A DNA stretch of 64,000 bases, taken from NCBI RefSeq assembly GCF_048403405.1, contig NZ_CP183129.1. One strand, written 5' to 3'. This stretch comes from Escherichia coli (GTDB lineage Bacteria; Pseudomonadota; Gammaproteobacteria; Enterobacterales; Enterobacteriaceae). This document shows, one piece after another, positions 17,903-30,198 of the stretch (position 1 is the stretch's first letter; each line of letters begins with the position of its first letter). The notes beneath the pieces were generated by a model. That model did not search any database and had not been told where the DNA came from. It saw only the letters and a list, made by a program, of their open reading frames with translations. Made by a program: the position numbers and the translations under genes.

Positions 17903-18889
17903 TTAAACCACCCGATCCAGCCCCAACATGCCGCGAGCCTGAATGAAACAGAGCAGCAACGTTCCCCATAAGGCCATCGTCAGGTAGGGGCTTATACCGA
18001 GAATATTGAAGCCGCTTTCAATAATTTGCAGAAGAAACAGCGCCAGCACCATACCAATTATCCGCCCGCTGCCGCCGTCCGGATTAACCCCGCCGAGTAC
18101 TGCCGCGAGGATTGACACCAGCAAGTACGATTCGCCATAAGAGGCCTTAGCCGAGTTGAGTTTCGACATCATCAAAAATGCCGCTACCGCACAAAGCAAG
18201 GCGGAAATAACATACACCCATATCAGCACCCGACGAGTGTTAATACCGGAGTAAAGTGTTGCTCGTTCGTTAGAACCAATCAGATAAATGGCTTTACCGA
18301 GCGGCGTTTTCTCCAGCAATATCCACAGCCCCAGCGCCACTGCGGTAAACAACCACATCGGTAGCGGAATACCGAACCACTGTGCATGATTCAACCACAG
18401 CACCCATGAGGGATAATTGGCAATGGCGCTACCGCCTGTCACCAGAATATTTACCCCTTTGAGCAACGTCATCATCCCAAGCGTTGCAAGAATTGGCGAC
18501 ACTCGAATACCAGCAATCAATACGCCGTTACATAAACCGATTATCACCGCCGCGCCAGCGCCCGCCAGCAGCGTAGCGACAACCGTAGCAATACCCGGTG
18601 GATACTGAGTCGCCACCCACGCCATCACCAGTGAACAGGCGTTAGCAGTGGCTATAATTGACAAGTTAATGCCACCGCAAAGCATGGTCACCGCCATAGC
18701 CAACGCCAGAATGCCCAGCACGGGCATTTGCGAAGCGACGGACTGGAAATTACTTATCGACCAGAAAATCTCCGGCATAGTAATGCTGAACGCGGCAACA
18801 GTTAGCACCAGCAGGCCGATCAAGTAAAACTCAACGTTATTACGCCACGATTTTTTCATAGCAGACTCCGGTTCTGATGCTGACTCCAC
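17903..18889 (-). CDS. ABC transporter permease (sugar/CUT2-type)
   Basis: 328 aa polytopic membrane protein, second of two tandem permeases. Confidence 0.75.
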   Translation of the reverse strand: MESASEPESAMKKSWRNNVEFYLIGLLVLTVAAFSITMPEIFWSISNFQSVASQMPVLGILALAMAVTMLCGGINLSIIATANACSLVMAWVATQYPPGIATVVATLLAGAGAAVIIGLCNGVLIAGIRVSPILATLGMMTLLKGVNILVTGGSAIANYPSWVLWLNHAQWFGIPLPMWLFTAVALGLWILLEKTPLGKAIYLIGSNERATLYSGINTRRVLIWVYVISALLCAVAAFLMMSKLNSAKASYGESYLLVSILAAVLGGVNPDGGSGRIIGMVLALFLLQIIESGFNILGISPYLTMALWGTLLLCFIQARGMLGLDRVV

Positions 18890-19827
18890 GCCGTGGCGCT
18901 AATGCTGGCAACGATGATGATGCCGGTGATCAATGTTTGCCAGTAAGACGAGACTCCCAATAAATTTAGCCCGTTTTGCATCACTGCCAACAACACCACG
19001 CCGAGCAAAGTACCGGTTAACGTGCCGCGCCCGCCGAGCAAACTAGTGCCGCCAAGCACCACCGCAGCCAGTACTGTCAGCTCATAACCCAGAAGAGAAT
19101 CGGGGGCGACAGTCATCACCGTCCACGACTGCACTACACCCGCAGCACCAGACATCAATCCCATATAGCCATAGACGAAAAGTTGCAGTTTCAGCACGCT
19201 AAAGCCGATGCGACTGGCGGATTCACGGTTCCCGCCAAGGGCATAAATTTTGCGCCCTACACTGGTGAAATTCATGATAAACGCTGTTAGCAGCACCACC
19301 GTAATCATGGCGATCAGCGGCAGACCAAGGCCATAGTCATAGCCATCAGCATCGGTGTACTTGAACAACATTACCCCCTGCTCAAACCACGGCGGAAAGT
19401 CGTACAGCCACACACCTTTACTCAACCATAACAGCAGGCCATAGAAAATATTCAGCGTCGAAATGGTGATGATGATAGAAGGCACCCGTAGGCGATTAAC
19501 CAGTAAGGCGTTTATTAAGCCAAGTAAAATGCCGATGCCGCCCGCCAGGGCAAACGCGACAGCAAAGTTGCCACCAATTTTTTGCAGCAACAGCACCATG
19601 CCGTATTGCGCAATGATGGTCATTGCCGGAAACGAAATATCAATCCCACCGGAAATTAACACCACAAACAAACCACAGGCGAGAATAGTCAACATGGCAT
19701 AGTTATTGGCGAGATCGTACAAATTACCGAATGTCAGAAACTCGTCGCTGCGCCAGGCAAGGCCAACAAACAGCACCACAATCAGTAATGCCAGCCAGAA
19801 TTCATGGCGTTTTTTCAGTTCAGCCAT
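18856..19827 (-). CDS. ABC transporter permease (sugar/CUT2-type)
   Basis: 323 aa polytopic membrane protein; 8 nt overlap with ATPase gene end. Confidence 0.75.
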   Translation of the reverse strand: MAELKKRHEFWLALLIVVLFVGLAWRSDEFLTFGNLYDLANNYAMLTILACGLFVVLISGGIDISFPAMTIIAQYGMVLLLQKIGGNFAVAFALAGGIGILLGLINALLVNRLRVPSIIITISTLNIFYGLLLWLSKGVWLYDFPPWFEQGVMLFKYTDADGYDYGLGLPLIAMITVVLLTAFIMNFTSVGRKIYALGGNRESASRIGFSVLKLQLFVYGYMGLMSGAAGVVQSWTVMTVAPDSLLGYELTVLAAVVLGGTSLLGGRGTLTGTLLGVVLLAVMQNGLNLLGVSSYWQTLITGIIIVASISATAWSQHQNRSLL

Positions 19828-21319
19828 TTACCACCTCCGCAATCCTGGCCTGAGAACTGCTGTCAGGCAGGAAGCTATGGGTGATCTGACCTTTTTGCAT
19901 TACCAAAATCCGGTGGCTTTGATACCACGCTTCTTCAATTTCATCGCAGATCATCAATACCGCAATGCCATGAGCCGCCAGATCGCTGATAATGCCGTAT
20001 ATTCCTGCTTTGTTGGCGATATCAACACCGACAGTCGGGCTATCGAGAATCAACAGTCGTGGCCCAATCGCCAGCCATTTGGCGATCGATACTCGCTGCG
20101 CGTTACCCCCAGAAAGCGTATTCACCGGGAGATGTGGGTCAGAGACTTTGATGGTCAATGCCTTGATTAGCCTGTCCACCAGGTCACGCACTTTAGCTTC
20201 ACTCAGAAAGCCGAAGCGATCTTTTACCTTGTGAAAAACAGTGCTAATGATGTTGTCTTCAATAGATTGCGCCATCACCAAACCGCGCGACATGCGATCT
20301 TCCGAAACATAACCAATACCGTGGCGGATGGCGTCCTGGTTACTATGCAGTGTAACCGGCTGACCGTTGATGAGGATCTCACCAGCATCCGGTCGGGTCA
20401 TACCAAACAGACTCAGACATAATTCCGTGCGCCCCGCACCAAGCAGGCCAACAATCGACACCACTTCGCCCGCTTCCACCCGCAAGTTAATATTTTGATA
20501 TTCCCCATGACGACTTAAATTACGCACCTCTAGCACTGGGATGCTGGATTTTCCCTGCCACAACTCTCGCACCTGATATTCAAACTCCTGGCCGGTCATC
20601 AGGAAACCGAGTTGTTTTGTGGTCATCTCTGCAGCCGGAAAGGTCCCGACCAGCTCACCATCTTTCAACACTGAAATACGGTCGGAAACTTCCATCACCT
20701 CTTCCAGACGATGACTGACGAAGACCACGCAGATCCCGCGTTCCCGCAATTGATGCACCACCTGTAATAACCCTTGCACTTCCTGATGGGTCAGCGAAGC
20801 GGTTGGTTCATCCATCACGATCAACCGTGCGTCCTGCGCCAGTGCACGGCAAATTGCCACCAGCTGACAGCGGGCAATTGAAAGCTCAGAAACGAGCGTA
20901 TCCAGTGGCAATGTGACGTTAATACTGGTCATTGCCGCCTGCGCCACCTCACGCAGACGACGGCGGTTAACAAACAGACCGTGGTGATAGTGATTCACGG
21001 CGATATTCTCCCAGACACTCAGGTTAGGAAATAAAGAGAGGTCCTGATAAATCACCTGAATCCCCTGCGCCACCGAAGCGGCGGGTGTCAGCTTTGACCA
21101 GTTTTTCCCACCAAGCGTAATTTCCGCCCCCTCATCCGGGCGATAAACACCGGACATAATTTTAATCAACGTCGATTTACCACAGCCGTTTTGCCCGGCA
21201 AGGCAGTGCACTTCACCCGACATAAAGTCGAGAGAAACATCGCGCAGCGCTCGCGTGGCATGAAACGTTTTGTTGATATGACGAAGGGAAAGGAAGGTTT
21301 CCATAGCATCCCCTGGCAA
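19820..21319 (-). CDS. ABC transporter ATP-binding protein, duplicated ABC domains
   Basis: 499 aa; Walker A GQNGCGKST, signature LSGG in the second half; two-domain architecture typical of RbsA/LsrA-like ATPases. Confidence 0.8.
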   Translation of the reverse strand: MPGDAMETFLSLRHINKTFHATRALRDVSLDFMSGEVHCLAGQNGCGKSTLIKIMSGVYRPDEGAEITLGGKNWSKLTPAASVAQGIQVIYQDLSLFPNLSVWENIAVNHYHHGLFVNRRRLREVAQAAMTSINVTLPLDTLVSELSIARCQLVAICRALAQDARLIVMDEPTASLTHQEVQGLLQVVHQLRERGICVVFVSHRLEEVMEVSDRISVLKDGELVGTFPAAEMTTKQLGFLMTGQEFEYQVRELWQGKSSIPVLEVRNLSRHGEYQNINLRVEAGEVVSIVGLLGAGRTELCLSLFGMTRPDAGEILINGQPVTLHSNQDAIRHGIGYVSEDRMSRGLVMAQSIEDNIISTVFHKVKDRFGFLSEAKVRDLVDRLIKALTIKVSDPHLPVNTLSGGNAQRVSIAKWLAIGPRLLILDSPTVGVDIANKAGIYGIISDLAAHGIAVLMICDEIEEAWYQSHRILVMQKGQITHSFLPDSSSQARIAEVVNG

Positions 21320-21352
21320 TAAGAATCGGGGCTTTCGCCCCGAAGAAATGGA

Positions 21353-22339
21353 TTAATAAAGTGAGTCGATATTGTCTTTGTTGACCAGTAATACCTTATG
21401 GAAACGGATAATTCGCTTATCCATATCTACATCGGCCTTACCGAGATTCTCCATTTCTAATCCAGGTTTGATCTCTTCACCCTTCAGCAACGTGCTGGCG
21501 ACGGCCGCGAGTGCGTAACCTGCAGAGGCCGGATCGTAAGTAATCCCTTCGGTGATATCACCACTTTTAATCAGTGATGCCGCCTGTGAAGGGATCATCA
21601 TGCCATAGACTGCGACTTTATTTTTCGCCCGTTTCTCTTTCACTGCACGTCCCGCGCCAATCGGACCGTTTGAACCAAAGGAGACAACCGCTTTCAAGTC
21701 AGGATAGGTTTTCATCAGGTCCAGTGTGGTACGACGTGAGTCATCCACACTCTCGGCAACCGGCATGCGGCGGGTAACTTCATGCATATCCGGGTAATGC
21801 TCTTTCTGGTATTTCACCAGCAAGTCAGCCCATAAGTTATGCTGCGGCACGGTCAAACTACCCACGTAAATCACATAGCCGCCCTTGCCACCCATGCGTT
21901 TCGCCATATGCTCAACATATTCAGCGGCAAATTTTTCGTTATCAATGATTTCGATATCCCAGTTAGCACTTGGCTGACCGGGAGATTCGTTGGTCAGAAC
22001 CACAATCCCGGCATCTCGCGCTTTTTTGAATACCGGTTCCAGCACGTTGGCATCGTTTGGCACGATAGTAATTGCATTAACCTTACGGGCGATTAAATCC
22101 TCAATAATTTTAACCTGTTGCGGAGCATCAGTACTTGAAGGTCCCACCTGTGAGGCATTAACACCAAAGGCTTTACCCGCCTCGACCACACCTTCGCCCA
22201 TGCGATTAAACCACGGCATACCATCGACTTTAGAGATATTCACCACGACTTTTTCCGCTGCCTGGAGCGGCGCAGAAATTAGCGCAGCGCCTAATAACAG
22301 CGAAGACACCATATTGATAACAAAACGTTTATTCATCAT
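21353..22339 (-). CDS. Periplasmic substrate-binding protein, LsrB/RhaS-like
   Basis: 328 aa with Sec signal peptide; C-terminal ...KTYPDLKAVVSFGSNGP...VLLVNKDNIDSLY resembles LsrB ...KAYPDLDAIIAPDANAL...VIFNKDNIDKYDF as I recall it. Confidence 0.7.
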   Translation of the reverse strand: MMNKRFVINMVSSLLLGAALISAPLQAAEKVVVNISKVDGMPWFNRMGEGVVEAGKAFGVNASQVGPSSTDAPQQVKIIEDLIARKVNAITIVPNDANVLEPVFKKARDAGIVVLTNESPGQPSANWDIEIIDNEKFAAEYVEHMAKRMGGKGGYVIYVGSLTVPQHNLWADLLVKYQKEHYPDMHEVTRRMPVAESVDDSRRTTLDLMKTYPDLKAVVSFGSNGPIGAGRAVKEKRAKNKVAVYGMMIPSQAASLIKSGDITEGITYDPASAGYALAAVASTLLKGEEIKPGLEMENLGKADVDMDKRIIRFHKVLLVNKDNIDSLY

Positions 22340-22589
22340 TTCAGCCTCATTGCAGGGTAGTCAGGAAGTGTTCGCCCAAATTAGCGCGCTGGAGAGAATA
22401 AGAATTTTCGAATATTTTTATGCAGAATAAACAGCCCTATTTCAGGCAGCTATTAAAAATTTGGTTATAAATATGGACAAAACGGGCAGCAATAATAAGT
22501 GTGACATTCATCACGTAAAAAATAGCAAAATAAACAAAATTAGCGATATTTTATGTTTGTGAGCTTATTTCGCGTAGAAAAATAGTTAT

Positions 22590-23033
22590 CTACACAACGT
22601 CAATAAGGGCATATTCTTCAAAGATAACGTCCATTTCGGGTGAATAGCATCCTTCTGCCTGGAAAAAACGACGGTGTTCATTACGCCAATATTCAAGACT
22701 GAGGTCACCTTCACCTTCCTTACGGGCAAGCTCCGCGGTGACATCAGAAAAGCGCAGTAAATGCAGGCCAATCACTCTGATAACACAGACAGGCTCACCA
22801 CGGCTATTTTCTACAATCTTATACTCACCAATCATCGGAAATGCGTTGTCTTCAATACATCCCGCCAGCGAACCACAGGAAGCTGTTTTAACACCTGTCG
22901 CAATCAACGTTGCGAGGTGATCGGCCAACGCTGCTGAATCGCCAAAAGTACAAAAGGAAGCATGGGGATATTTTTGTGAGATTTTTTCTTTTATGGTCAT
23001 GAGAATATTTTCGCGATTACGGAAAAAAATCAC
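22590..23033 (-). CDS. Small hypothetical protein, possibly ASCH/PUA-like
   Basis: 147 aa ORF (likely shorter, from MTIKEK...); G-V-K-T motif faintly ASCH-like; weak support. Confidence 0.35.
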   Translation of the reverse strand: MIFFRNRENILMTIKEKISQKYPHASFCTFGDSAALADHLATLIATGVKTASCGSLAGCIEDNAFPMIGEYKIVENSRGEPVCVIRVIGLHLLRFSDVTAELARKEGEGDLSLEYWRNEHRRFFQAEGCYSPEMDVIFEEYALIDVV

Positions 23034-23297
23034 ATCTTAATTACTGTTGATAACCATCAGCAAGAGGATCATTGGTTTTTCTATGTTTAATCTTTTTTAT
23101 CCGAAGCCGGTCACATTTATGGCTTGATAAATACCTTTGTTAAAACTCACTTTTGTGTATTTCTCTCAAATAATCCCCTGGAAATTATGCCGGGAGATTA
23201 TAAAGTTCAGGATCATTCATTAGCAAACCATTGCTGCCCCACTCCCTGGGGCTTTAAATCTCTTACGATTCACCATTGCAGGCGTTTCAAATGCGTA

Positions 23298-24680
23298 TCA
23301 ACCTGCCACACTCCCCCACACCAGTTGCCCTTTATGGAACGTCGCCGTTCTCGGCGAGATACGCGCCACCGCCTCGGCGGAACAGGAGGCGTCCACCAGC
23401 ACAAAGCTGGCGTCATCCTGCGCTTTGGGCCAGACGCGCTCGCCTTTTTCATTGAGCGGCAATACATCGCCAGTGGCTAAAAACAGCGAACGGGAGAGGT
23501 TCTGTTCGTTAGGGCGAATATAGAGCTGCGCGTACAGATTGGCTTTTTCCAGCATGTCGCCCAGGCCGTAAGGCGACCAGTGGTCGATAACGCTGTCGGT
23601 GCCAGTCATCACTTTTACGCCTTTGTCGTGCAACTGTTTGAGCGGCATATGCAACGTGCCAATCGGCACCGTCGAGGCGATAGAAATTTGCTGCGCCGCC
23701 ATCCGGTGCGCCAGTTCATCTACCTGTTGCTCATTGAGCGTTGCCAGCGCAAAGGCGTGGCTGATGGTCAGCTTGCCCTTCAGTTGCGGCGTTTTCTCTA
23801 CCGTTTCAACCATATAATTGATGGCTGCCACGCCTGCCGGAGTGGTTTCGTGCAGGTGAATATCGACGCCTTTGTCGTAGTCCAGCGCAATCTGGAACAT
23901 GGTGTCGAGGGATTTTTCCATCGCGCCATCAACACTGGTTGGGTCCAGCCCGCCGACGTAATGCGCCCCTGCCTGCATCGCTTCGCGCATTAAGGGTTCC
24001 GATTTCGACAGCAGCAAACCGTGCTGCGGGAAGGCGACAATTTCACACTCGAAGCCCGCCTGACGTCGCGCCAGCACCGCCTGCAAATTTTGCAGATTTT
24101 TCAGGCCGGAAACCGGTTCGATATTGCAGTGGCTGCGGGCAATGGTAGTGCCTTTCGACTGCAATAAATCGATCAGTTTTTCCGCTCGTTCCTGCGAGTA
24201 CGGTTGCAGCTCCGGCAGCATTTTCTGCTCGAGTTTGATCATGTCCTGGATGGTGGTGCCTGCCGGACGATTGAGCGAGCGCCACGGCCCGCCGTAAAAG
24301 GTTTTGTCGAGATGAATATGCATGTCGCGGGTAGTGGGCAGCATCAGCTTACCGCCAGCGTCATAGTGCGGCAGCGTGGCGTCCGGATGCTGCTTGTTCT
24401 CGCGCAGGGCAACAATTTTGCCGTTCTGAATCTCTACGGTCTGGTGCGCCGTGCGGGTCTGTACTGCCACACCGTTTTCGTAGTCAAAACCGGTTTCCAG
24501 CAGCACGTTGTCGAGATAGTAGTGCGGGTCAGTGATTTTCATGGTGTTATTCGCGTCGCAATGGATTGTGCCAGAGACTGCCGCATGGGCGAGCGGCACA
24601 GAGGTACCAAACAGCGCGGCGGCGGTGACCATCTTACCGCTCTGGCTCAGAAACTCACGGCGGCTATTGCTTTCTTTCAT
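23298..24680 (-). CDS. yahJ: Amidohydrolase-superfamily deaminase with twin-arginine signal peptide
   Basis: 460 aa; N-terminus SRREFLSQSGKMVTAAALFGTSVPLAHA-AV is a Tat signal; metal-binding HIHLD motif. Confidence 0.85.
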   Translation of the reverse strand: MKESNSRREFLSQSGKMVTAAALFGTSVPLAHAAVSGTIHCDANNTMKITDPHYYLDNVLLETGFDYENGVAVQTRTAHQTVEIQNGKIVALRENKQHPDATLPHYDAGGKLMLPTTRDMHIHLDKTFYGGPWRSLNRPAGTTIQDMIKLEQKMLPELQPYSQERAEKLIDLLQSKGTTIARSHCNIEPVSGLKNLQNLQAVLARRQAGFECEIVAFPQHGLLLSKSEPLMREAMQAGAHYVGGLDPTSVDGAMEKSLDTMFQIALDYDKGVDIHLHETTPAGVAAINYMVETVEKTPQLKGKLTISHAFALATLNEQQVDELAHRMAAQQISIASTVPIGTLHMPLKQLHDKGVKVMTGTDSVIDHWSPYGLGDMLEKANLYAQLYIRPNEQNLSRSLFLATGDVLPLNEKGERVWPKAQDDASFVLVDASCSAEAVARISPRTATFHKGQLVWGSVAG

Positions 24681-24689
24681 CTTACGTCC

Positions 24690-25640
24690 TTACGTTTTAA
24701 TAATATGGGTGCCCGTTTCACCGCGCAGCGCCGCAGGCAGGCATTCCGGCGTGGTGATAATCACTTCTTTGCCGCCCTGTTCCAGGAACGTCAGGCTGGC
24801 GATGATTTTTGGCAACATGCTGCCAGGCGGAAAATGCCCTTCCTGCATATAGCGGGTCATGGTGGCAATATCCACCCGATCCAGCGCCTGCTGCTGCGGT
24901 TTGCCAAAGTGAATACACACTTTTTCGACGCCAGTGGTGATCACCAGAATGTCGGCGTGAATTTCACGGGCCAATAGCGCGGTAGAGAGATCTTTGTCGA
25001 TAACCGCGTCCACGCTTTGGTAATCCCCCGCTTCACTGCACACCACCGGAATTCCGCCACCGCCCGCGCCAATCACCACAAAGCCTTGTTGGATCAGCGC
25101 CTTAATGGCAGGTGCTTCTACAATACGTTGCGGTTCCGGCGAGGCGACCACGCGGCGATAGCCCCGTCCGGCATCTTCAACAAAACGCCAGTCAGGGTTT
25201 GCCTTTTGTAATTCGTCACGCTGGCTTTCACTAAAGAATGCGCCGATGGGCTTGGTGGGATGGGCAAACCCCGGATCGTTTTTATCCACTTCCACCTGAG
25301 TCACCACGGTGACGGCTTTTTTCTCACCGTGACGCGCCAGTCGGTTATTCAGCGCCTGTTGGATCAGATAGCCAATGCCGCCTTGCGTATCCGCCACACA
25401 GTTCGCCAGCGGCGTTAAGGGCAGCCCTTCGCGCTCGTGGGCTATCTCCGCGCGGCGTAAATCCAGACCGACCTGCGGCCCGTTGCCGTGGGTCAGCACA
25501 ATGTCGTAATCGGAAGCCAGCATTTCCAGCACCGTATCGGCCACGGCTTTCACCGCCTCCGCCTGATGCTCAATCGACTGGCTGGCGTTATCTTTGATAA
25601 TGCTGTTGCCACCAATGGCAACGACCACAAGTTCTTTCAT
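24690..25640 (-). CDS. yahI: Carbamate kinase
   Basis: ORF track extends to 25814; ATG at 25638-25640 gives MKELVVVAIGGNS..., 316 aa; 9 bp upstream of yahJ. Confidence 0.85.
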   Translation of the reverse strand: MKELVVVAIGGNSIIKDNASQSIEHQAEAVKAVADTVLEMLASDYDIVLTHGNGPQVGLDLRRAEIAHEREGLPLTPLANCVADTQGGIGYLIQQALNNRLARHGEKKAVTVVTQVEVDKNDPGFAHPTKPIGAFFSESQRDELQKANPDWRFVEDAGRGYRRVVASPEPQRIVEAPAIKALIQQGFVVIGAGGGGIPVVCSEAGDYQSVDAVIDKDLSTALLAREIHADILVITTGVEKVCIHFGKPQQQALDRVDIATMTRYMQEGHFPPGSMLPKIIASLTFLEQGGKEVIITTPECLPAALRGETGTHIIKT

Positions 25641-25734
25641 GTTGTTATGTCCGCTACAGAGGGTGATGGGGTTATGAGAGTGAGGTTGCCCCTCTCCCCA
25701 GAAGGGAGAAGGGATCGTAAGGTGCGTTTGCAGG

Positions 25735-27153
25735 TCAGACGCCGTAACGTTCGCACCAGCCAAGAATGGCTTTCTCGAAGCAGGCGAATGGTGGATGCAC
25801 AATGCCCGCGCCAATCATGCCGACGCCCGCATCTTTATGGGCGATGGCGGTGTTGATCACCGGCAGAATGCCGCTGCTGCCCACGCGGGTGATGTCGATT
25901 GCCGACGGCACGCCCATAAAACCGAGCAGCGGAATGGTGACGTTGGGGTTTTCACCGAGAGTGATTTCACGCATCTGGCGGGAGAAATCGATAGCCTCTT
26001 CCACCGTGCCGCCCACCAGCGCGACGATCGCGGGCGCGGTCGCCATAGCAAATCCGCCAATGCCGTAGGTTTCGGTGATGGCGCTGTCGCCGATATCCAG
26101 CCCCGAATCTTCCGGCTTATAACCGGCAAACATCGGGCCGATCACCTGCTGCGCCGGACCGGTAAACCATTGCCCCGGTAATCCGCTGACCCGCAGACCG
26201 AACTCGACGCCGTTACGCGCCATCGTGGTCACCACGGTGCTGTATTCGATGCCGTGCGCCGCATCCATCGCCGCTTTACACATCGCCATCCACGTCGGGC
26301 CGGAGAAGTAGTCGCTGCTGGCGACAAACTCAAACACTTCGCGCTGTTGTTCAATGGAATAACCTGCCTGAATAATCCCTGGCGTCAGCGCCTGAATCAG
26401 CAGCGTCGTCCCGGCGTTATTGCGGTTATGGCATTCATCGCCCATATGCAGCGCTTGCGCCAGCATTAAGCGCAGATCGATTTCGCCGATAATTTTCATC
26501 GCGTCGCGCAGCATGGGCCCCTGCACATCGCGCATCCAGTTGAGGCGGTCAATCACGCTCTGGTCGTTAGCGCCCATACGCAAAATCTTCGCCATCTGCT
26601 CGCTCATATTGGTGTAAGCGATGTTGCCGTAGGTTTTGTTTTTTACGATGTGCATAAACATCGAGGCCGAGGTAACACCCGCCATCGATCCCACGCAGTC
26701 ATGTTCGTGGCACGGCGAGAAGGTGATCTCCCCGGAGGCCGCCAGGTCAGCCGCCTCGTCGAGATCTTTCGCCAGCCCTTCGAACACCAGCGCCCCGGTG
26801 ACCGCGCCTTTCATTGCGCCGCACATTTTTTCCCAGGTCACTGGCGGCCCGGCGTGAAGAATGGTTTTCGGCGTCATTCCCGGCACCACGTTAATCGCCT
26901 GATCAAAACCAATCAGCACCGGATGCGACTGGATAATGCGCTCCAGCGCCTGCTGGTTAGCGGCGGCGATTTTGTCTGCCAGCGGCGAATCGGCAATGTT
27001 ATCCAGCGCCTGCACCACCTGCATATTGCCCTGCCCCGGCGGCGTCCAGTCGAGTTGGGTCACTTCTACATGCTGCTTTTTCAGATCATCGCTAAACATG
27101 GCGATGCCGACGTTAATAACGTTCAACGGTTGGCTAAACAGTGACGGGCTCAT
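25735..27153 (-). CDS. yahG: DUF1116-family protein (YlbE-like)
   Basis: 472 aa; ATG overlaps yahF stop by 1 nt (ATGA); strong SD GGGGAGGAAG upstream. Confidence 0.8.
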   Translation of the reverse strand: MSPSLFSQPLNVINVGIAMFSDDLKKQHVEVTQLDWTPPGQGNMQVVQALDNIADSPLADKIAAANQQALERIIQSHPVLIGFDQAINVVPGMTPKTILHAGPPVTWEKMCGAMKGAVTGALVFEGLAKDLDEAADLAASGEITFSPCHEHDCVGSMAGVTSASMFMHIVKNKTYGNIAYTNMSEQMAKILRMGANDQSVIDRLNWMRDVQGPMLRDAMKIIGEIDLRLMLAQALHMGDECHNRNNAGTTLLIQALTPGIIQAGYSIEQQREVFEFVASSDYFSGPTWMAMCKAAMDAAHGIEYSTVVTTMARNGVEFGLRVSGLPGQWFTGPAQQVIGPMFAGYKPEDSGLDIGDSAITETYGIGGFAMATAPAIVALVGGTVEEAIDFSRQMREITLGENPNVTIPLLGFMGVPSAIDITRVGSSGILPVINTAIAHKDAGVGMIGAGIVHPPFACFEKAILGWCERYGV

Positions 27154-28700
27154 CAGGCTTCCTCCCCTTTGCAGATAAATTCACGCGCCAGCAATCCGGT
27201 ATTGGTGCTGCTGCTGGCCAGAATCACTCCGGCATCAAGCAGCATCTGGCTTTGTTGTTCTAATGATGGCGTATCAAGATCGGTACCCAGCACATAGGCG
27301 AGAATGATCAACTCACGTCCTTCGGCAGCGGCGATCGCTTTCGCCTCTTTGATCGCCTCGATGGTGGAACCGACCGGATCTTCATGCGATCCAAACCCGA
27401 GCACAAAATCCATCACGATCACCGCCACTTCTGGATCGCGCGCCTCTTCGATCAAGCGGCTGATACGGTTGGTGGGGTCAATCATTGGATGCGGCTTGCC
27501 GTTGGTGAAGTCGTCATCGCCAAAGTCGAGGAAGGTGTGTTTGATGCTGCGGTTGATATCTTGCAGGCGGAATTCAGGATCGGGCTGAATGTTGCTGTAG
27601 ACATCGCCATGTTTTTCCATCACCGCAAACATGGTTTCGTCACACAGCGTGCCGCCGCAGAACAGGCCACGAATGTATTTCTGCTGCGGTTGCAGACGCG
27701 CACGCACATCCGCAATCAACGGCTGGTTCAGGGTATGCAGATCGAGATGTTCCTGTTTCACGCCGGAGAGCATTACCGCTTTCAGCGCCGCTTCTTTGCT
27801 GCCGCGAGCAAACTGTAGCCCCTGCTCATCCACCGGCGTTTCAACGCGACCGAGGAAGCAGACCACCACCGGCTTGCGGCAGGCACGTGCGCGTTCCAGC
27901 ACTTTACGGGCCACCGCAGGCGCAGGCGGTTTGGAGATAAGCACAATGATTTCAGTTTGCGGATCGTTTTCCAGCATCCCGATGGCGTCGAGCATCATCA
28001 GGCCGCCGATTTTCTCGCTCAGGTCGCGCCCGCCGGTGCCAATCAGTTGCGAAACGCCGCCGCCAAATTCATGAATGCGGACGCTCAGCTCCTGGCTGCC
28101 GGTGCCGGATGCACCAACAATACCGATGTTGCCGCGACGCACGGCGTTACCAAAGCAGAGCGCCGCGCCGTTGATAATCGCCGTACCGCAGTCTGGCCCC
28201 ATCATCAGCAGCCCTTTTTCGTGGGCCAACTGTTTGAGCGCCAGTTCATCTTCAACTGAGACGTTATCGGAAAACAGCATCACGTTAAGATCGTTTTGCA
28301 GCGCCTGACGCGCTTCGCGAGCGGCAAACAGACCGTTGACCGAAATCACCGCCAGGTTACTTTCCGGGATATGCTTTTTGGCGCTGGCAATAGTGGCATA
28401 GCGTGCTTCATGTGAACCAGTTTGAGCTTTGGTGTTGAACAGTTCTTCAATCTCCACCAGCAACTGCTCGTTGTCCGCCCCCGATTTACCATTGATGACA
28501 ATCATCAGGTCGCCGTTTTTCGCCTGTTCCAGCTCCGGCGTCAGCAGTCCTAAATTTTTCAGCACACCTTTGTTCATTTCGGTCGCCATCGCCACAAATG
28601 CCTGCTCGACGCCGTCGAGTTTATTTGCACGCGTGGAGATAGACATCAGCGAGACAGAATCAAAATAGGTATTCGGTTTAATGACTATTTTAACTGACAT
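27153..28700 (-). CDS. yahF: FdrA-like protein with acyl-CoA synthetase (NDP-forming) / succinyl-CoA-synthetase-like CoA-binding fold
   Basis: 515 aa; glycine-rich nucleotide/CoA loops (GIVGASGTGSQ, GGGVSQLIGTGGRD). Confidence 0.8.
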   Translation of the reverse strand: MSVKIVIKPNTYFDSVSLMSISTRANKLDGVEQAFVAMATEMNKGVLKNLGLLTPELEQAKNGDLMIVINGKSGADNEQLLVEIEELFNTKAQTGSHEARYATIASAKKHIPESNLAVISVNGLFAAREARQALQNDLNVMLFSDNVSVEDELALKQLAHEKGLLMMGPDCGTAIINGAALCFGNAVRRGNIGIVGASGTGSQELSVRIHEFGGGVSQLIGTGGRDLSEKIGGLMMLDAIGMLENDPQTEIIVLISKPPAPAVARKVLERARACRKPVVVCFLGRVETPVDEQGLQFARGSKEAALKAVMLSGVKQEHLDLHTLNQPLIADVRARLQPQQKYIRGLFCGGTLCDETMFAVMEKHGDVYSNIQPDPEFRLQDINRSIKHTFLDFGDDDFTNGKPHPMIDPTNRISRLIEEARDPEVAVIVMDFVLGFGSHEDPVGSTIEAIKEAKAIAAAEGRELIILAYVLGTDLDTPSLEQQSQMLLDAGVILASSSTNTGLLAREFICKGEEA

Positions 28701-29553
28701 AATTCCCTCCGTAGGTTTGGCTCAGCGCACAACCATCGGCCATGCCATACAGCATGTCGCAGCCGGAACTGGAGCCAATATGTTTAATTTTTTCTATTGC
28801 CTGAGTTGCGTTCCCAGGGATGTCATAAATAATGTTGTGAATAAAACGATGAATATTTTCCCGGCAGCGTTGTTGTAATGCGGCTTCCAGCGTTATGGCA
28901 CTTAATAACGTGGTATTATTTCTGCCGCGTTGCAGACCGAGATAAAATTCCTCTTTGTATTTTTCCGCCGGATGTCCGGAAATAAATAAAATAAGCGCCA
29001 GACCTGTTAAATAATCGTCGGCTGATGGCGTAAGGCCAATCCCTAAGCCCATCATACTGGCGACTGCTGAGGCGATATTTTGTTTATCGTTTACGGCCTG
29101 AATAACTGCCCGTCGTTTACTATGTAATTCTTTATTTAACGCCTGATAAAACGGATTATCGCCGCAATAATTAAACAGGGTTTCATTTTCCCCCAGGTGC
29201 TGATGAATAATGTCATGCCACTGTTGCCAGGCGATAAGGTGAAAATTCACAGCGGTCATTTGCAAGGTTGGGGACAGCCAACGCCGACAACGACTCATCT
29301 CTATATGAAGATGTTGACCAACCGTAATGCCTTGATCGTCAAACTGAACCTTATCACCATGCCGGAACAGACCATCAAAGTGAGTGAGTGCCAACCGACA
29401 ACTGTTTGGCGCATTGTCGTACTCTTCACAAAGCAGCGTCAGCAACTGCTGGCGGGCCGGAAGTGCGATATTTACCGCTCTGGCAAAGACCTGTTCAACC
29501 TGTCCTTGCCCCCGCTGCGCCAGAAAATCAGCATCCGCAGTTAGCGCCCACAC
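28690..29553 (-). CDS. yahE: DUF2877-family protein (YlbF-like)
   Basis: 287 aa; 11 nt overlap with yahF. Confidence 0.75.
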   Translation of the reverse strand: MWALTADADFLAQRGQGQVEQVFARAVNIALPARQQLLTLLCEEYDNAPNSCRLALTHFDGLFRHGDKVQFDDQGITVGQHLHIEMSRCRRWLSPTLQMTAVNFHLIAWQQWHDIIHQHLGENETLFNYCGDNPFYQALNKELHSKRRAVIQAVNDKQNIASAVASMMGLGIGLTPSADDYLTGLALILFISGHPAEKYKEEFYLGLQRGRNNTTLLSAITLEAALQQRCRENIHRFIHNIIYDIPGNATQAIEKIKHIGSSSGCDMLYGMADGCALSQTYGGNYVS

Positions 29554-29592: not shown

Positions 29593-30198
29593 TTATGCAC
29601 CTGCGGCAATCAGTAACTGCGCAATCTCTTCAAAGCCTCGTTCCCGCGCCAGTTCCAGCGGCGTTTTGCCATATTTATCCGTCATGTGCGGGCTGGCACC
29701 GTGTTCAAGCAATAACTGGACAATCGCCTGCTGTTTAATCCCGCCATCATTAAGCACAATTGCTTCCAGTAGCGGCGTCCAGCCAACATGGTTGGTCTGG
29801 TTAACGTTAATCTCCGTATGCGCCAAAAGCTCTTTTACAATACTTAAATGGCCTTTTTCACAGGCAGGCGTCAGGCCGACACCGCCAAAACGGGTGACGC
29901 AATTAAGATCAGGTTTAGCCGGTAAAATAATCCGTAACAGGGTTAAATCGCCGGTCAGGCAGCTAATTAAAAAAGGATTTGAACATATTTGATCTTGCTT
30001 ATTAATATCCGCTCCGGCATCAATTAATGCCTGAACGCAAGCATATTGCTGATATAAACTTGCCAGCGTAATTGCCGTTTTCCCCTGACGATCGCAGGTA
30101 TTAATATCGACACCCAGCGCAAGGCAGGTTTTTACTTTATCGATATCACCCTGTTGCGCAGCCAATAAATAGTCGGCAGGTAGATTTTTTATAGTCAT
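29593..30198 (-). CDS. yahD: Ankyrin-repeat protein
   Basis: 201 aa with tandem ankyrin-like repeats (G-TPL--A...LL--GA). Confidence 0.8.
   Translation of the reverse strand: MTIKNLPADYLLAAQQGDIDKVKTCLALGVDINTCDRQGKTAITLASLYQQYACVQALIDAGADINKQDQICSNPFLISCLTGDLTLLRIILPAKPDLNCVTRFGGVGLTPACEKGHLSIVKELLAHTEINVNQTNHVGWTPLLEAIVLNDGGIKQQAIVQLLLEHGASPHMTDKYGKTPLELARERGFEEIAQLLIAAGA

Follow-up and report, generated by a model that had tools for sequence, protein, structure and literature searches.

The yahJ gene of this Escherichia coli strain very probably codes for a mononuclear-metal amidohydrolase that is made as a precursor and is destined for the periplasm; it would be exported by the twin-arginine (Tat) pathway and would belong to the yahDEFG-I-J cluster, not to the ABC transport system encoded next to it. 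In the 64,000-nucleotide stretch of DNA analysed here (the window), the yahJ ORF occupies positions 23298 to 24680 on the minus strand, from an ATG start codon to a TGA stop codon, and encodes 460 amino acid residues. The strand had been left unstated in the sequence-only reading of this DNA. The yahJ region is 100% identical to that of E. coli strain TUM14771, where the RefSeq label is "yahJ: amidohydrolase family protein". The NCBIfam model NF005312 matched YahJ with 715.3 bits (cut-off 447) and covered residues 49 to 459. The gene is the same as K-12 yahJ (b0324), with about 95.5% identity at the DNA level. The first 35 residues of the two proteins are identical, and the first allelic difference is at residue 36 (S versus A). 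In yahJ, the two strains have only allelic differences, while the present strain keeps a downstream block of ASCH-domain and ABC transporter genes.

A Shine-Dalgarno sequence, AAGGA (24687 to 24691, minus strand), lies 6 nucleotides 5′ of the yahJ start codon and overlaps with the stop codon of the yahI gene (24690 to 24692), which suggests that yahI and yahJ may be translationally coupled. A cytoplasmic YahJ isoform starting from Met47, around the start of the NF005312 model, was also considered and seems unlikely, there being no Shine-Dalgarno sequence 5′ of that codon.

Tat signals share the consensus S/T-R-R-x-F-L-K, found close to the N-terminus where the n-region gives way to the h-region. 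As shown by translation and by orthologue conservation, YahJ has the motif S6-R7-R8-E9-F10-L11 (24648 to 24665, minus strand), which conforms to S-R-R-x-F-L, while the seventh position (+5) is S, not K. The N-terminus is MKESNSRREFLSQSGKMVTAAALFGTSVPLAHA-AVSG, exactly as quoted in the sequence-only reading. The h-region (M17 to L30) has no charge and is only moderately hydrophobic, and it is followed by A31-H32-A33 (24582 to 24590, minus strand), an AxA-type signal peptidase I site with a predicted cut before A34. Thus, the signal peptide is predicted to consist of residues 1 to 33 (MKESNSRREFLSQSGKMVTAAALFGTSVPLAHA; 24582 to 24680, minus strand), in agreement with the sequence read, a published TatP result (PMC7549933), the TIGR01409 alignment, and the range of E. 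coli Tat signals. The highest Kyte-Doolittle mean over any 12 residues is 1.64 in YahJ; in a set of 24 E. coli Tat signals the median is 1.74, and the Sec signal of the adjacent binding protein reaches 2.28. The length (33 residues), the position of the arginine pair (7-8), and the hydrophobicity of the YahJ signal are all within the range of the 24 Tat signals. The Tat-signal HMM TIGR01409 gave 14.9 bits, below its cut-off of 16.7 bits, with YahJ residues 6 to 33 aligned to positions 2 to 29 of the 29 model positions. As the model is short and the score falls only slightly below the cut-off, this shortfall is not taken as disqualifying. A loose RR pattern matched 10 of the 1590 candidate ORF starts in the window, and yahJ alone combines S-R-R-x-F-L with an uncharged stretch after it and a genuine gene start. 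The RR motif of yahJ is thus judged not to be there by chance. Possible anchoring of YahJ as a lipoprotein or in the membrane was rejected, since position +1 lacks the Cys of a lipobox and the orthologues conserve the AxA site; YahJ is therefore predicted to be soluble.

Is the signal conserved among homologues? It was found that the RR motif is present in all 80 species-level homologues (58-98% identity) and in 92 of 93 close orthologues, the remaining one having RH. The mean column conservation of the motif is 0.87, the best in the first 50 residues. The AxA column, with the variants AYA, AHA, and AIA, has a value of 0.77. The lowest conservation in YahJ (0.37) is found in the variable linker of residues 34 to 50 (24531 to 24581, minus strand), which lies between the cleavage site and the catalytic domain. 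The family model NF005312 begins at residue 49 and excludes the signal, and most family representatives at 46% identity or below start directly at the domain, having no signal peptide. By this comparison, the Tat signal is a clade-specific addition to an otherwise signal-less family. Moreover, a Priestia homologue (P0123; 51% identical) is followed after 30 nucleotides by tatA and then by tatC in an apparent operon, an arrangement which provides independent genomic support for Tat export. In Caulobacter, the yahJ homologue lies directly 3′ of a TonB-dependent receptor gene.

Tat export of YahJ is already on record. K-12 YahJ is included in an E. coli Tat-substrate list (PMC3027627), and it also appears in a Tat-substrate table in which TatP gives the same 33-residue signal (PMC7549933). 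The YahJ signal peptide (ssYahJ) is described in a passage of PMC6788121, which cites Tullman-Ercek 2007 and Fisher 2008, as exporting reporters to the periplasm and serving as a secretion tag. The sequence-only reading had claimed a Tat signal with an S-R-R-x-F-L motif, a hydrophobic core, and an AxA site. This claim agrees with the sequence anatomy, with the invariant arginine pair, and with the published lists. Its prediction of a periplasmic destination is supported by the TatP result, by the Priestia tatA-tatC genes, and, as far as that passage goes, by the reporter export. The signal-peptide prediction it proposed as a check had been published with the same outcome. Hence the observation is correct but not new, having been published and tested in the laboratory at the level of the signal peptide. 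In the literature examined, no direct localisation of the native full-length YahJ was found. As a finding, the export of YahJ brings nothing beyond what is published, and the signal peptide is in biotechnological use already; what the comparative data do narrow is the possible role of the yah cluster.

The amidohydrolase catalytic domain corresponds to residues 51 to 460 (23301 to 24530, minus strand), as delimited by alignments, the AtzC structure 6nbo, and Pfam. The Pfam matches are Amidohydro_3 (1.1e-13) and Amidohydro_1. In an alignment of 14 diverse homologues, signal-less relatives included, no substitution occurs at H121-x-H123, Q219-H220, H275, H277, H308, and D362. E278 is invariant in the 93 close orthologues, while T, D, and N each replace it in one member of the 14-sequence alignment. 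All catalytic residues are intact in the present YahJ and align with those of AtzC. They fit the pattern of this branch, in which an HxH follows strand 1, an HxHE supplies His and Glu, another His comes later, and an Asp follows strand 8. Their metal-binding and catalytic roles are presumably those of the CodA counterparts, by analogy with which they were assigned. The closest solved relatives are AtzC (6nbo; E 2.9e-44) and then the cytosine deaminase CodA (about 1e-15), and YahJ is, by alignment, an amidohydrolase of the cytosine-deaminase/AtzC branch. Assignment as a cytosine deaminase was rejected, with scores of 69.6 bits for NF005759 (cut-off 403), 102.8 bits for NF005748 (cut-off 438), and 82.2 bits for NF006685 (cut-off 483). 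From the E-values and these equivalog scores far below the cut-offs, YahJ appears to be neither AtzC nor CodA.

I found that yahJ is the last gene of a cluster in the order yahD-E-F-G-I-J, all on the minus strand, and that this same-strand neighbourhood is conserved in 35-43 of 80 species. Immediately upstream in the same operon is yahI (24690 to 25640), a member of the carbamate-kinase family (NF009007, 645 bits) whose product is 38% identical to K-12 YbcF. Further upstream are yahG (25735 to 27153), yahF (27153 to 28700), and yahE (28690 to 29553), paralogues of AllG, AllF, and AllH with 45% identity to K-12 YlbE, 38% to FdrA, and 25% to YlbF, respectively. The Pfam families AllG, AllF, and AllH match the orthologues of YahG, YahF, and YahE, and AllFGH has been identified as oxamate transcarbamylase (OXTCase) (PMC11326118). 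The yahD gene (29593 to 30198) encodes, by annotation and profile search, an ankyrin-repeat protein of 201 residues with no signal peptide. Among the 80 species, yahI accompanies yahJ in 37, yahE/F/G in 30-35, and an operon-encoded nucleobase-type permease in 29. The cluster persists even around a homologue only 36% identical to YahJ, beside a PucR-type regulator gene. In a subclade of 58-65% identity (e.g., Photorhabdus and Bosea), yahJ occurs alone, and no informative partner genes were found. The operon permease is kept in Citrobacter, Enterobacter, Providencia, and Serratia and is absent from the present strain and from K-12. This 516-residue membrane protein had no significant sequence match in Pfam, NCBIfam, or PDB, and its label of "xanthine / AGZA-family permease" comes from source-database names alone.

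A basic residue in the c-region or in the early mature part, called "Sec avoidance", is typical of Tat signals but not obligatory. No K or R occurs in YahJ between G15-K16 and residue 48. The lack of such a residue is consistent with the promiscuity reported for ssYahJ, which is described in a passage of PMC6788121, citing Tullman-Ercek 2007, as being recognised by both Tat and Sec. The sequence-only reading had held that export independent of Tat would speak against it; according to that passage, such export occurs in part, for reporter fusions only, and the periplasmic destination is unchanged. It is therefore conceivable that YahJ is periplasmic but is exported mainly by Sec in an unfolded state, acquires its metal in the periplasm, and tolerates the arginine pair without requiring it; the TIGR01409 score below the cut-off also points that way. 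I consider this unlikely. The promiscuity described there is that of reporter fusions and not of the native enzyme in its folded state, and the arginine pair is invariant in the 80 homologues while the flanking residues vary. The hydrophobicity of the core is what is usual for Tat signals, below that of the adjacent Sec signal, and the Gram-positive homologue has its own tatA-tatC directly downstream.

It had also been proposed in the sequence-only reading that YahJ converts its substrate outside the cytoplasm and that a binding protein then takes up the product for import through the adjacent ABC transporter. The block in question (17903 to 23000, minus strand), as annotated, consists of an ASCH-domain gene (22590 to 23000), a sugar-type binding protein gene (21353 to 22336), an ATPase gene (19820 to 21223), and two permease genes (18856 to 19827 and 17903 to 18859). 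The block adjoins yahJ on the same strand here and in 2211 E. coli genomes, and the ASCH-domain protein encoded in between is of a family that includes N4-acylcytosine/acetylcytidine amidohydrolases, activities that would be loosely compatible with nucleobase chemistry. Even so, such coupling is very unlikely. Only 2211 of 5426 complete E. coli genomes carry the block, more than half of those with yahJ lack it, and K-12 has deletion scars of the block while retaining yahJ. In the 80 other species, neither the binding protein nor the ASCH gene has an orthologue within 10 kb of yahJ. The binding protein is nearest to rhamnose/AI-2 sugar binders, below every curated cut-off. A gap of 297 nucleotides with a promoter-like site (23226 to 23197) separates yahJ from the block. 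In the promoter/terminator scan of positions 21300 to 25900, the site counts were no higher than in shuffled sequence, so this site is only a hint of separate transcription. The claimed coupling is thus not supported; the block appears to be strain-variable and outside the yahJ system, and the ABC importer need no longer be considered a partner. Another view is that yahJ is decaying or cryptic in E. coli, the signal being an evolutionary leftover of a protein idle in this strain. The operon permease is missing here and in K-12, several alleles have in-frame deletions removing catalytic residues, rare yahI-yahJ read-through fusions exist, and the cluster is still counted among dense blocks of uncharacterised E. 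coli genes (PMC11551758). This view is nevertheless extremely unlikely, given that a yahJ match covering at least 80% occurs in 5035 of the 5426 genomes, that the present copy has all its catalytic residues, and that a yahJ deletion strain was modestly out-competed in mice (competitive index 0.70, p = 0.02; PMC7549933).

In the preferred reading of YahJ as a Tat-exported enzyme of the yah cluster, the precursor would fold in the cytoplasm, probably binding its metal there. TatABC would recognise the S-R-R-E-F-L motif, as the reporter work described in the literature passage indicates for the signal peptide and as may hold for the native enzyme. The exported precursor would then be cut by signal peptidase I after A31-H32-A33, releasing a soluble enzyme starting from A34. 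Judging from the neighbourhood and the paralogy, the most likely role of YahJ would be to hydrolyse or deaminate, in the periplasm, a nitrogen-heterocyclic (nucleobase-like) compound of exogenous origin. The product may then be imported; the operon of other genera encodes an AzgA-like permease for which loss in the present strain is presumed. The breakdown might be completed in the cytoplasm by YahEFG, acting as an AllFGH-like carbamoyltransferase, and by the carbamate kinase YahI, with a yield of ATP, ammonia, and CO2. Since the permease is absent from this strain and K-12, no carrier is assigned to this import in E. coli. As a general scheme, extracellular conversion with subsequent uptake is still plausible, with the nucleobase-type permease as the conserved candidate importer. 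The permease-keeping Citrobacter, Enterobacter, Providencia, and Serratia may be better than K-12 for finding the YahJ substrate.

Of all the neighbours of yahJ, yahD is conserved most widely, in 43 of the 80 species. In minimal yahD-yahJ pairs, the two genes are 14-68 nucleotides apart or overlap. In four alphaproteobacterial loci, the yahD homologues beside yahJ have their own Sec-type or lipoprotein signal. The Enterobacterales YahD has no signal of its own and would thus need hitch-hiking to reach the periplasm. It is tentatively speculated, as a rather doubtful possibility, that YahD is a periplasmic partner of YahJ carried by the Tat signal of YahJ in Enterobacterales, the pair performing an extracytoplasmic first step of nucleobase-like breakdown which yields ATP via the AllFGH-like carbamoyltransferase and the carbamate kinase. 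An AlphaFold2 prediction of a fused YahJ(34-460)-(GGGGS)x6-YahD chain, made from a shallow alignment with 15 paired orthologue rows and no between-domain error matrix, gave a pTM of 0.48 and a mean pLDDT of 70, with large parts of YahJ below 50, and leaves the hitch-hiking idea neither stronger nor weaker. The YahD-YahJ pairing is a new, testable candidate for Tat hitch-hiking.

How does YahJ compare with known systems? In AtzC (N-isopropylammelide isopropylaminohydrolase; 6nbo and 2qt3) and CodA (1k6w), the HxH, HxHE, SH, and D motifs align with those of YahJ, and the substrates are amino- or alkylamino-substituted nitrogen heterocycles. With chains of 402-431 residues, the solved structures match YahJ only in its catalytic domain, from about residue 77, and the 33-residue Tat signal and the 17-residue linker are what YahJ has beyond them. 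A precedent for a metal-dependent, Tat-targeted member of the amidohydrolase superfamily is reportedly the organophosphate hydrolase (phosphotriesterase) of Brevundimonas diminuta, said to have been described by Gorla et al. in 2009 (J Bacteriol 191:6292, listed among the references of PMC9371700). YahJ differs from it in subfamily and chemistry and has an AxA site and no lipobox. In Bacillus, the tatAd-tatCd genes are found with phoD and form a TatA-TatC pair dedicated to that substrate. The Priestia yahJ homologue followed by tatA and tatC resembles this arrangement, while in E. coli the general TatABC system would serve YahJ. The closest parallel to the cluster is the AllFGH and carbamate kinase system of the anaerobic allantoin pathway in E. 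coli, of which YahF, YahG, YahE, and YahI are paralogues at the identities given above. These conserved partners point to the breakdown of nucleobase-like or ureido compounds with a periplasmic first step. The all cluster has neither a Tat-exported amidohydrolase nor an ankyrin protein, whereas the yah cluster has both.

The yahJ ORF occupies positions 23298-24680 on the minus strand (460 codons), a strand that the sequence-only reading left unstated; translation of the plus strand over this interval is full of stops. A Shine-Dalgarno sequence, AAGGA, lies 6 nt 5′ of the yahJ ATG and overlaps the yahI stop codon. E. coli strain TUM14771 matches the 14.5 kb around yahJ at 100% identity, and RefSeq there names the same ORF yahJ, 'amidohydrolase family protein'. 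Upstream of yahJ, on its strand, are yahD, yahE, fdrA-like yahF, yahG, and yahI in that order; downstream are an ASCH-domain gene, four genes of an ABC transporter, and yahK. The TAA stop of yahI is in frame with the yahJ ATG and 9 nt apart from it (24680-24692). Rare database proteins of 779-780 residues (P0001, P0003, and P0005) join YahI to YahJ by read-through, and two of them have a tyrosine in place of the yahI stop. The Tat signal would be internal in these fusions, which may be genuine alleles or artefacts of sequencing.

The sequence-only reading had assigned YahJ a Tat signal peptide and a periplasmic destination, and the N-terminus that it quoted is an exact match to the minus-strand translation, MKESNSRREFLSQSGKMVTAAALFGTSVPLAHAAVSGTIHC... 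A charged n-region (MKESNSRRE) includes the first part of S6-R7-R8-E9-F10-L11, which fits the Tat consensus. It is followed by a stretch (M17-L30) having no charges and only moderate hydrophobicity, and by a signal-peptidase I site, A31-H32-A33. Among the 24 Tat signals of E. coli in the table of PMC7549933, it would be ordinary in length (33), in the position of the twin arginines (7-8), and in core hydrophobicity (1.64; median of the set, 1.74). The binding protein encoded nearby has a Sec signal of higher hydrophobicity (2.28). A loose RR pattern matches 10 of the 1590 candidate starts in the window, and yahJ, one of the ten, is the sole genuine gene start there with an S-R-R-x-F-L-type motif. 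The TIGR01409 profile aligns end to end with residues 6-33 at 14.9 bits, a near miss below the cut-off of 16.7.

Is the signal maintained? Among 93 close orthologues, column conservation is 87% for the RR motif, 50% for the n-terminal residues, and 37% for the post-cleavage linker. RR-x-F-L/I is kept in all of 80 loci from different species of gamma- and alpha-proteobacteria (58-98% identity). The family model NF005312 begins only at residue 49, and most family representatives of 46% identity or less start at the catalytic domain without a signal. Taken together, these observations show that the signal is a clade-specific addition under maintenance, and its evolutionary conservation is the strongest evidence that it is real. 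In orthologues, a methionine is frequent 7-9 residues ahead of a conserved HYYLDNV motif, about where the signal-less family members begin. The methionine here is Met47 (24540-24542), which has no Shine-Dalgarno sequence 5′ of its codon; this residue may be a vestige of the start used by the ancestor. A homologue with an RR signal was found in Priestia (Bacillaceae; 51% identity). In Priestia sp. GCA_004348885.1 (L011 8001-10438), tatA (60 residues, with an FGPSKLPEIG motif) lies 30 nt after this gene and tatC (248 residues) comes next, which looks like a Tat translocase dedicated to one substrate. The homologue gene forms a divergent pair with a Xan_ur_permease gene. A Caulobacter homologue lies directly 3′ of a TonB-dependent receptor gene. 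Both contexts fit an extracytoplasmic enzyme.

YahJ (b0324) is among the predicted Tat substrates in PMC3027627, an entry taken from Dilks et al. 2003, and TatP predicted the identical 33-residue signal in PMC7549933. In the latter study, a yahJ deletion mutant of an extra-intestinal pathogenic strain showed a mild competitive disadvantage in mice (index 0.70, p = 0.02). In PMC6788121, the YahJ signal peptide (ssYahJ) is used to tag proteins for secretion in E. coli and Vibrio natriegens. Since residues 1-35 are the same here and in K-12, the published ssYahJ experiments are valid for the present allele. PMC6788121 describes ssYahJ as Tat/Sec-promiscuous; this is consistent with the c-region, in which sequence inspection found no basic residue. 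I found no published report on the localisation of native full-length YahJ. The sequence observation is confirmed, and the assignment of a Tat signal and a periplasmic destination is sound by anatomy, by the conservation of the RR motif, and by prior publications, but neither is new; the novelty is limited to the comparisons across genomes and the observations on YahD described below.

YahJ scores 715 bits against NF005312 (cut-off 447) and far under the cut-offs of cytosine-deaminase models. It has the Pfam domains Amidohydro_3 and Amidohydro_1, and the closest solved structures are AtzC (6nbo, E 2.9e-44) and cytosine deaminases. All 14 sequences of an alignment including signal-less relatives share H121-x-H123, Q219-H220, H275, H277, H308, and D362, and with these catalytic residues present the active site looks intact. 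E278 is invariant across the 93 close orthologues and variable in the 14-sequence set. It had been remarked that such amidohydrolases are usually cytoplasmic, which is true for the family, as most distant representatives lack a signal. In other E. coli YahJ sequences (P0011, P0014, P0015, P0034, and P0040), in-frame internal deletions remove residues 140-166, 200-235, 207-235, 265-310, and 291-350. The larger ones take out the catalytic motifs AFPQHG, HLHE, and SH, a hint that the enzyme has lost its function in some lineages.

The proposal that the adjacent ABC importer takes up the product of YahJ was not supported. Of 5426 complete E. coli genomes, 5035 carry yahJ (match over 80% or more of the gene) and 2211 carry the ASCH and ABC transporter genes (17903-23000, minus strand) as a block. 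K-12 lacks this block, of which two remnants persist (L002 11570-11727): 70 bp from the 3′ end of the ASCH gene and the terminal ~70 bp of the distal permease gene, whose counterparts here are 22568-22637 and the permease end up to 17974. E. coli had the block ancestrally, and K-12-like lineages lost it by a deletion that spared yahJ. In the 80 other species, neither the binding protein nor the ASCH gene has an orthologue at a distance of 10 kb or less from yahJ. The binding protein is of a sugar type, scoring best against the rhamnose binder (137 bits, cut-off 342) and the AI-2 binder (111 bits, cut-off 384), and a 297-nt gap holding a promoter-like site separates yahJ from the annotated ASCH start. 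The importer beside yahJ is incidental. A GC-rich hairpin (TCGGGGCGAAAGCCCCGA; 21326-21343, minus strand) between the binding-protein and ATPase genes may be an intra-operon attenuator; terminator-like matches in this region showed no excess over shuffled sequence.

Across the 80 species, no gene is found beside yahJ more often than the ankyrin-repeat gene yahD (29593-30198, minus strand; 43 species). Enterobacterial YahD has no signal peptide. Four alpha-proteobacterial homologues adjoining yahJ have one, Sec-like in L010 (2937-3611), L068, and L069, and with a lipobox (LTGC) in L074; a further homologue lies at L005 9367-10008. Minimal yahD-yahJ pairs, 14-68 nt apart or overlapping, occur in Erwinia, Cedecea, and some Enterobacter species. 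These signals and pairs suggest that YahD works with YahJ as its periplasmic partner, and enterobacterial YahD may leave the cytoplasm together with YahJ, using the signal of the latter, by Tat hitch-hiking. A fused-chain AlphaFold2 model of YahJ and YahD from a shallow alignment gave a pTM of 0.48, which weighs neither way on hitch-hiking.

Other recurrent neighbours are the LysR regulator gene yahB (39/80), yahI (carbamate kinase, 37/80), yahF and yahG (35/80), yahE (30/80), and a gene for a polytopic 516-residue membrane protein (511-517 across species; 29/80). The last lies between yahG and yahI in Serratia, Aeromonas, Citrobacter, Enterobacter, and Providencia (for example, L003 6942-8492, L006 7300-8847, and L014 228-1763). 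Only the source databases name it a xanthine or AGZA-family permease; comparison with Pfam, NCBIfam, and PDB gave nothing significant. It is missing from the window, where the yahG-yahI gap is 94 nt (25641-25734), and from K-12, which has yahH at this position. The yah cluster including the permease is also found around a Tat-bearing homologue of only 36% identity, adjoined there by a PucR-type regulator gene, and the permease is 71% identical between clusters in which the YahJ proteins share only ~36% identity with the query.

In the proposed mechanism, the YahJ precursor would fold and take up metal in the cytoplasm and be exported by Tat, as reporters have demonstrated for the signal; organophosphate hydrolase is a precedent for an amidohydrolase-fold enzyme using this route (Gorla 2009, cited in PMC9371700). 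After cleavage behind AHA33, periplasmic YahJ would hydrolyse or deaminate an exogenous nucleobase-like compound, as homology and the neighbours suggest, and the product would be imported, in other genera by the operon permease. YahEFG and YahI may then split a ureido intermediate into carbamoyl phosphate and yield ATP, ammonia, and CO2, as expected from paralogy. The AllFGH subunits of oxamate transcarbamylase are FdrA, YlbE, and YlbF (PMC11326118), and the carbamate kinase of that system is YbcF (PMC9843812). The identities are 38% for YahF-FdrA, 45% for YahG-YlbE, 25% for YahE-YlbF, and 38% for YahI-YbcF. The yahI, yahG, yahF, and yahE genes (24690-29553) are a complete paralogous set of AllF, AllG, AllH, and the carbamate kinase, implying a second, putatively ATP-yielding carbamoyltransferase system.
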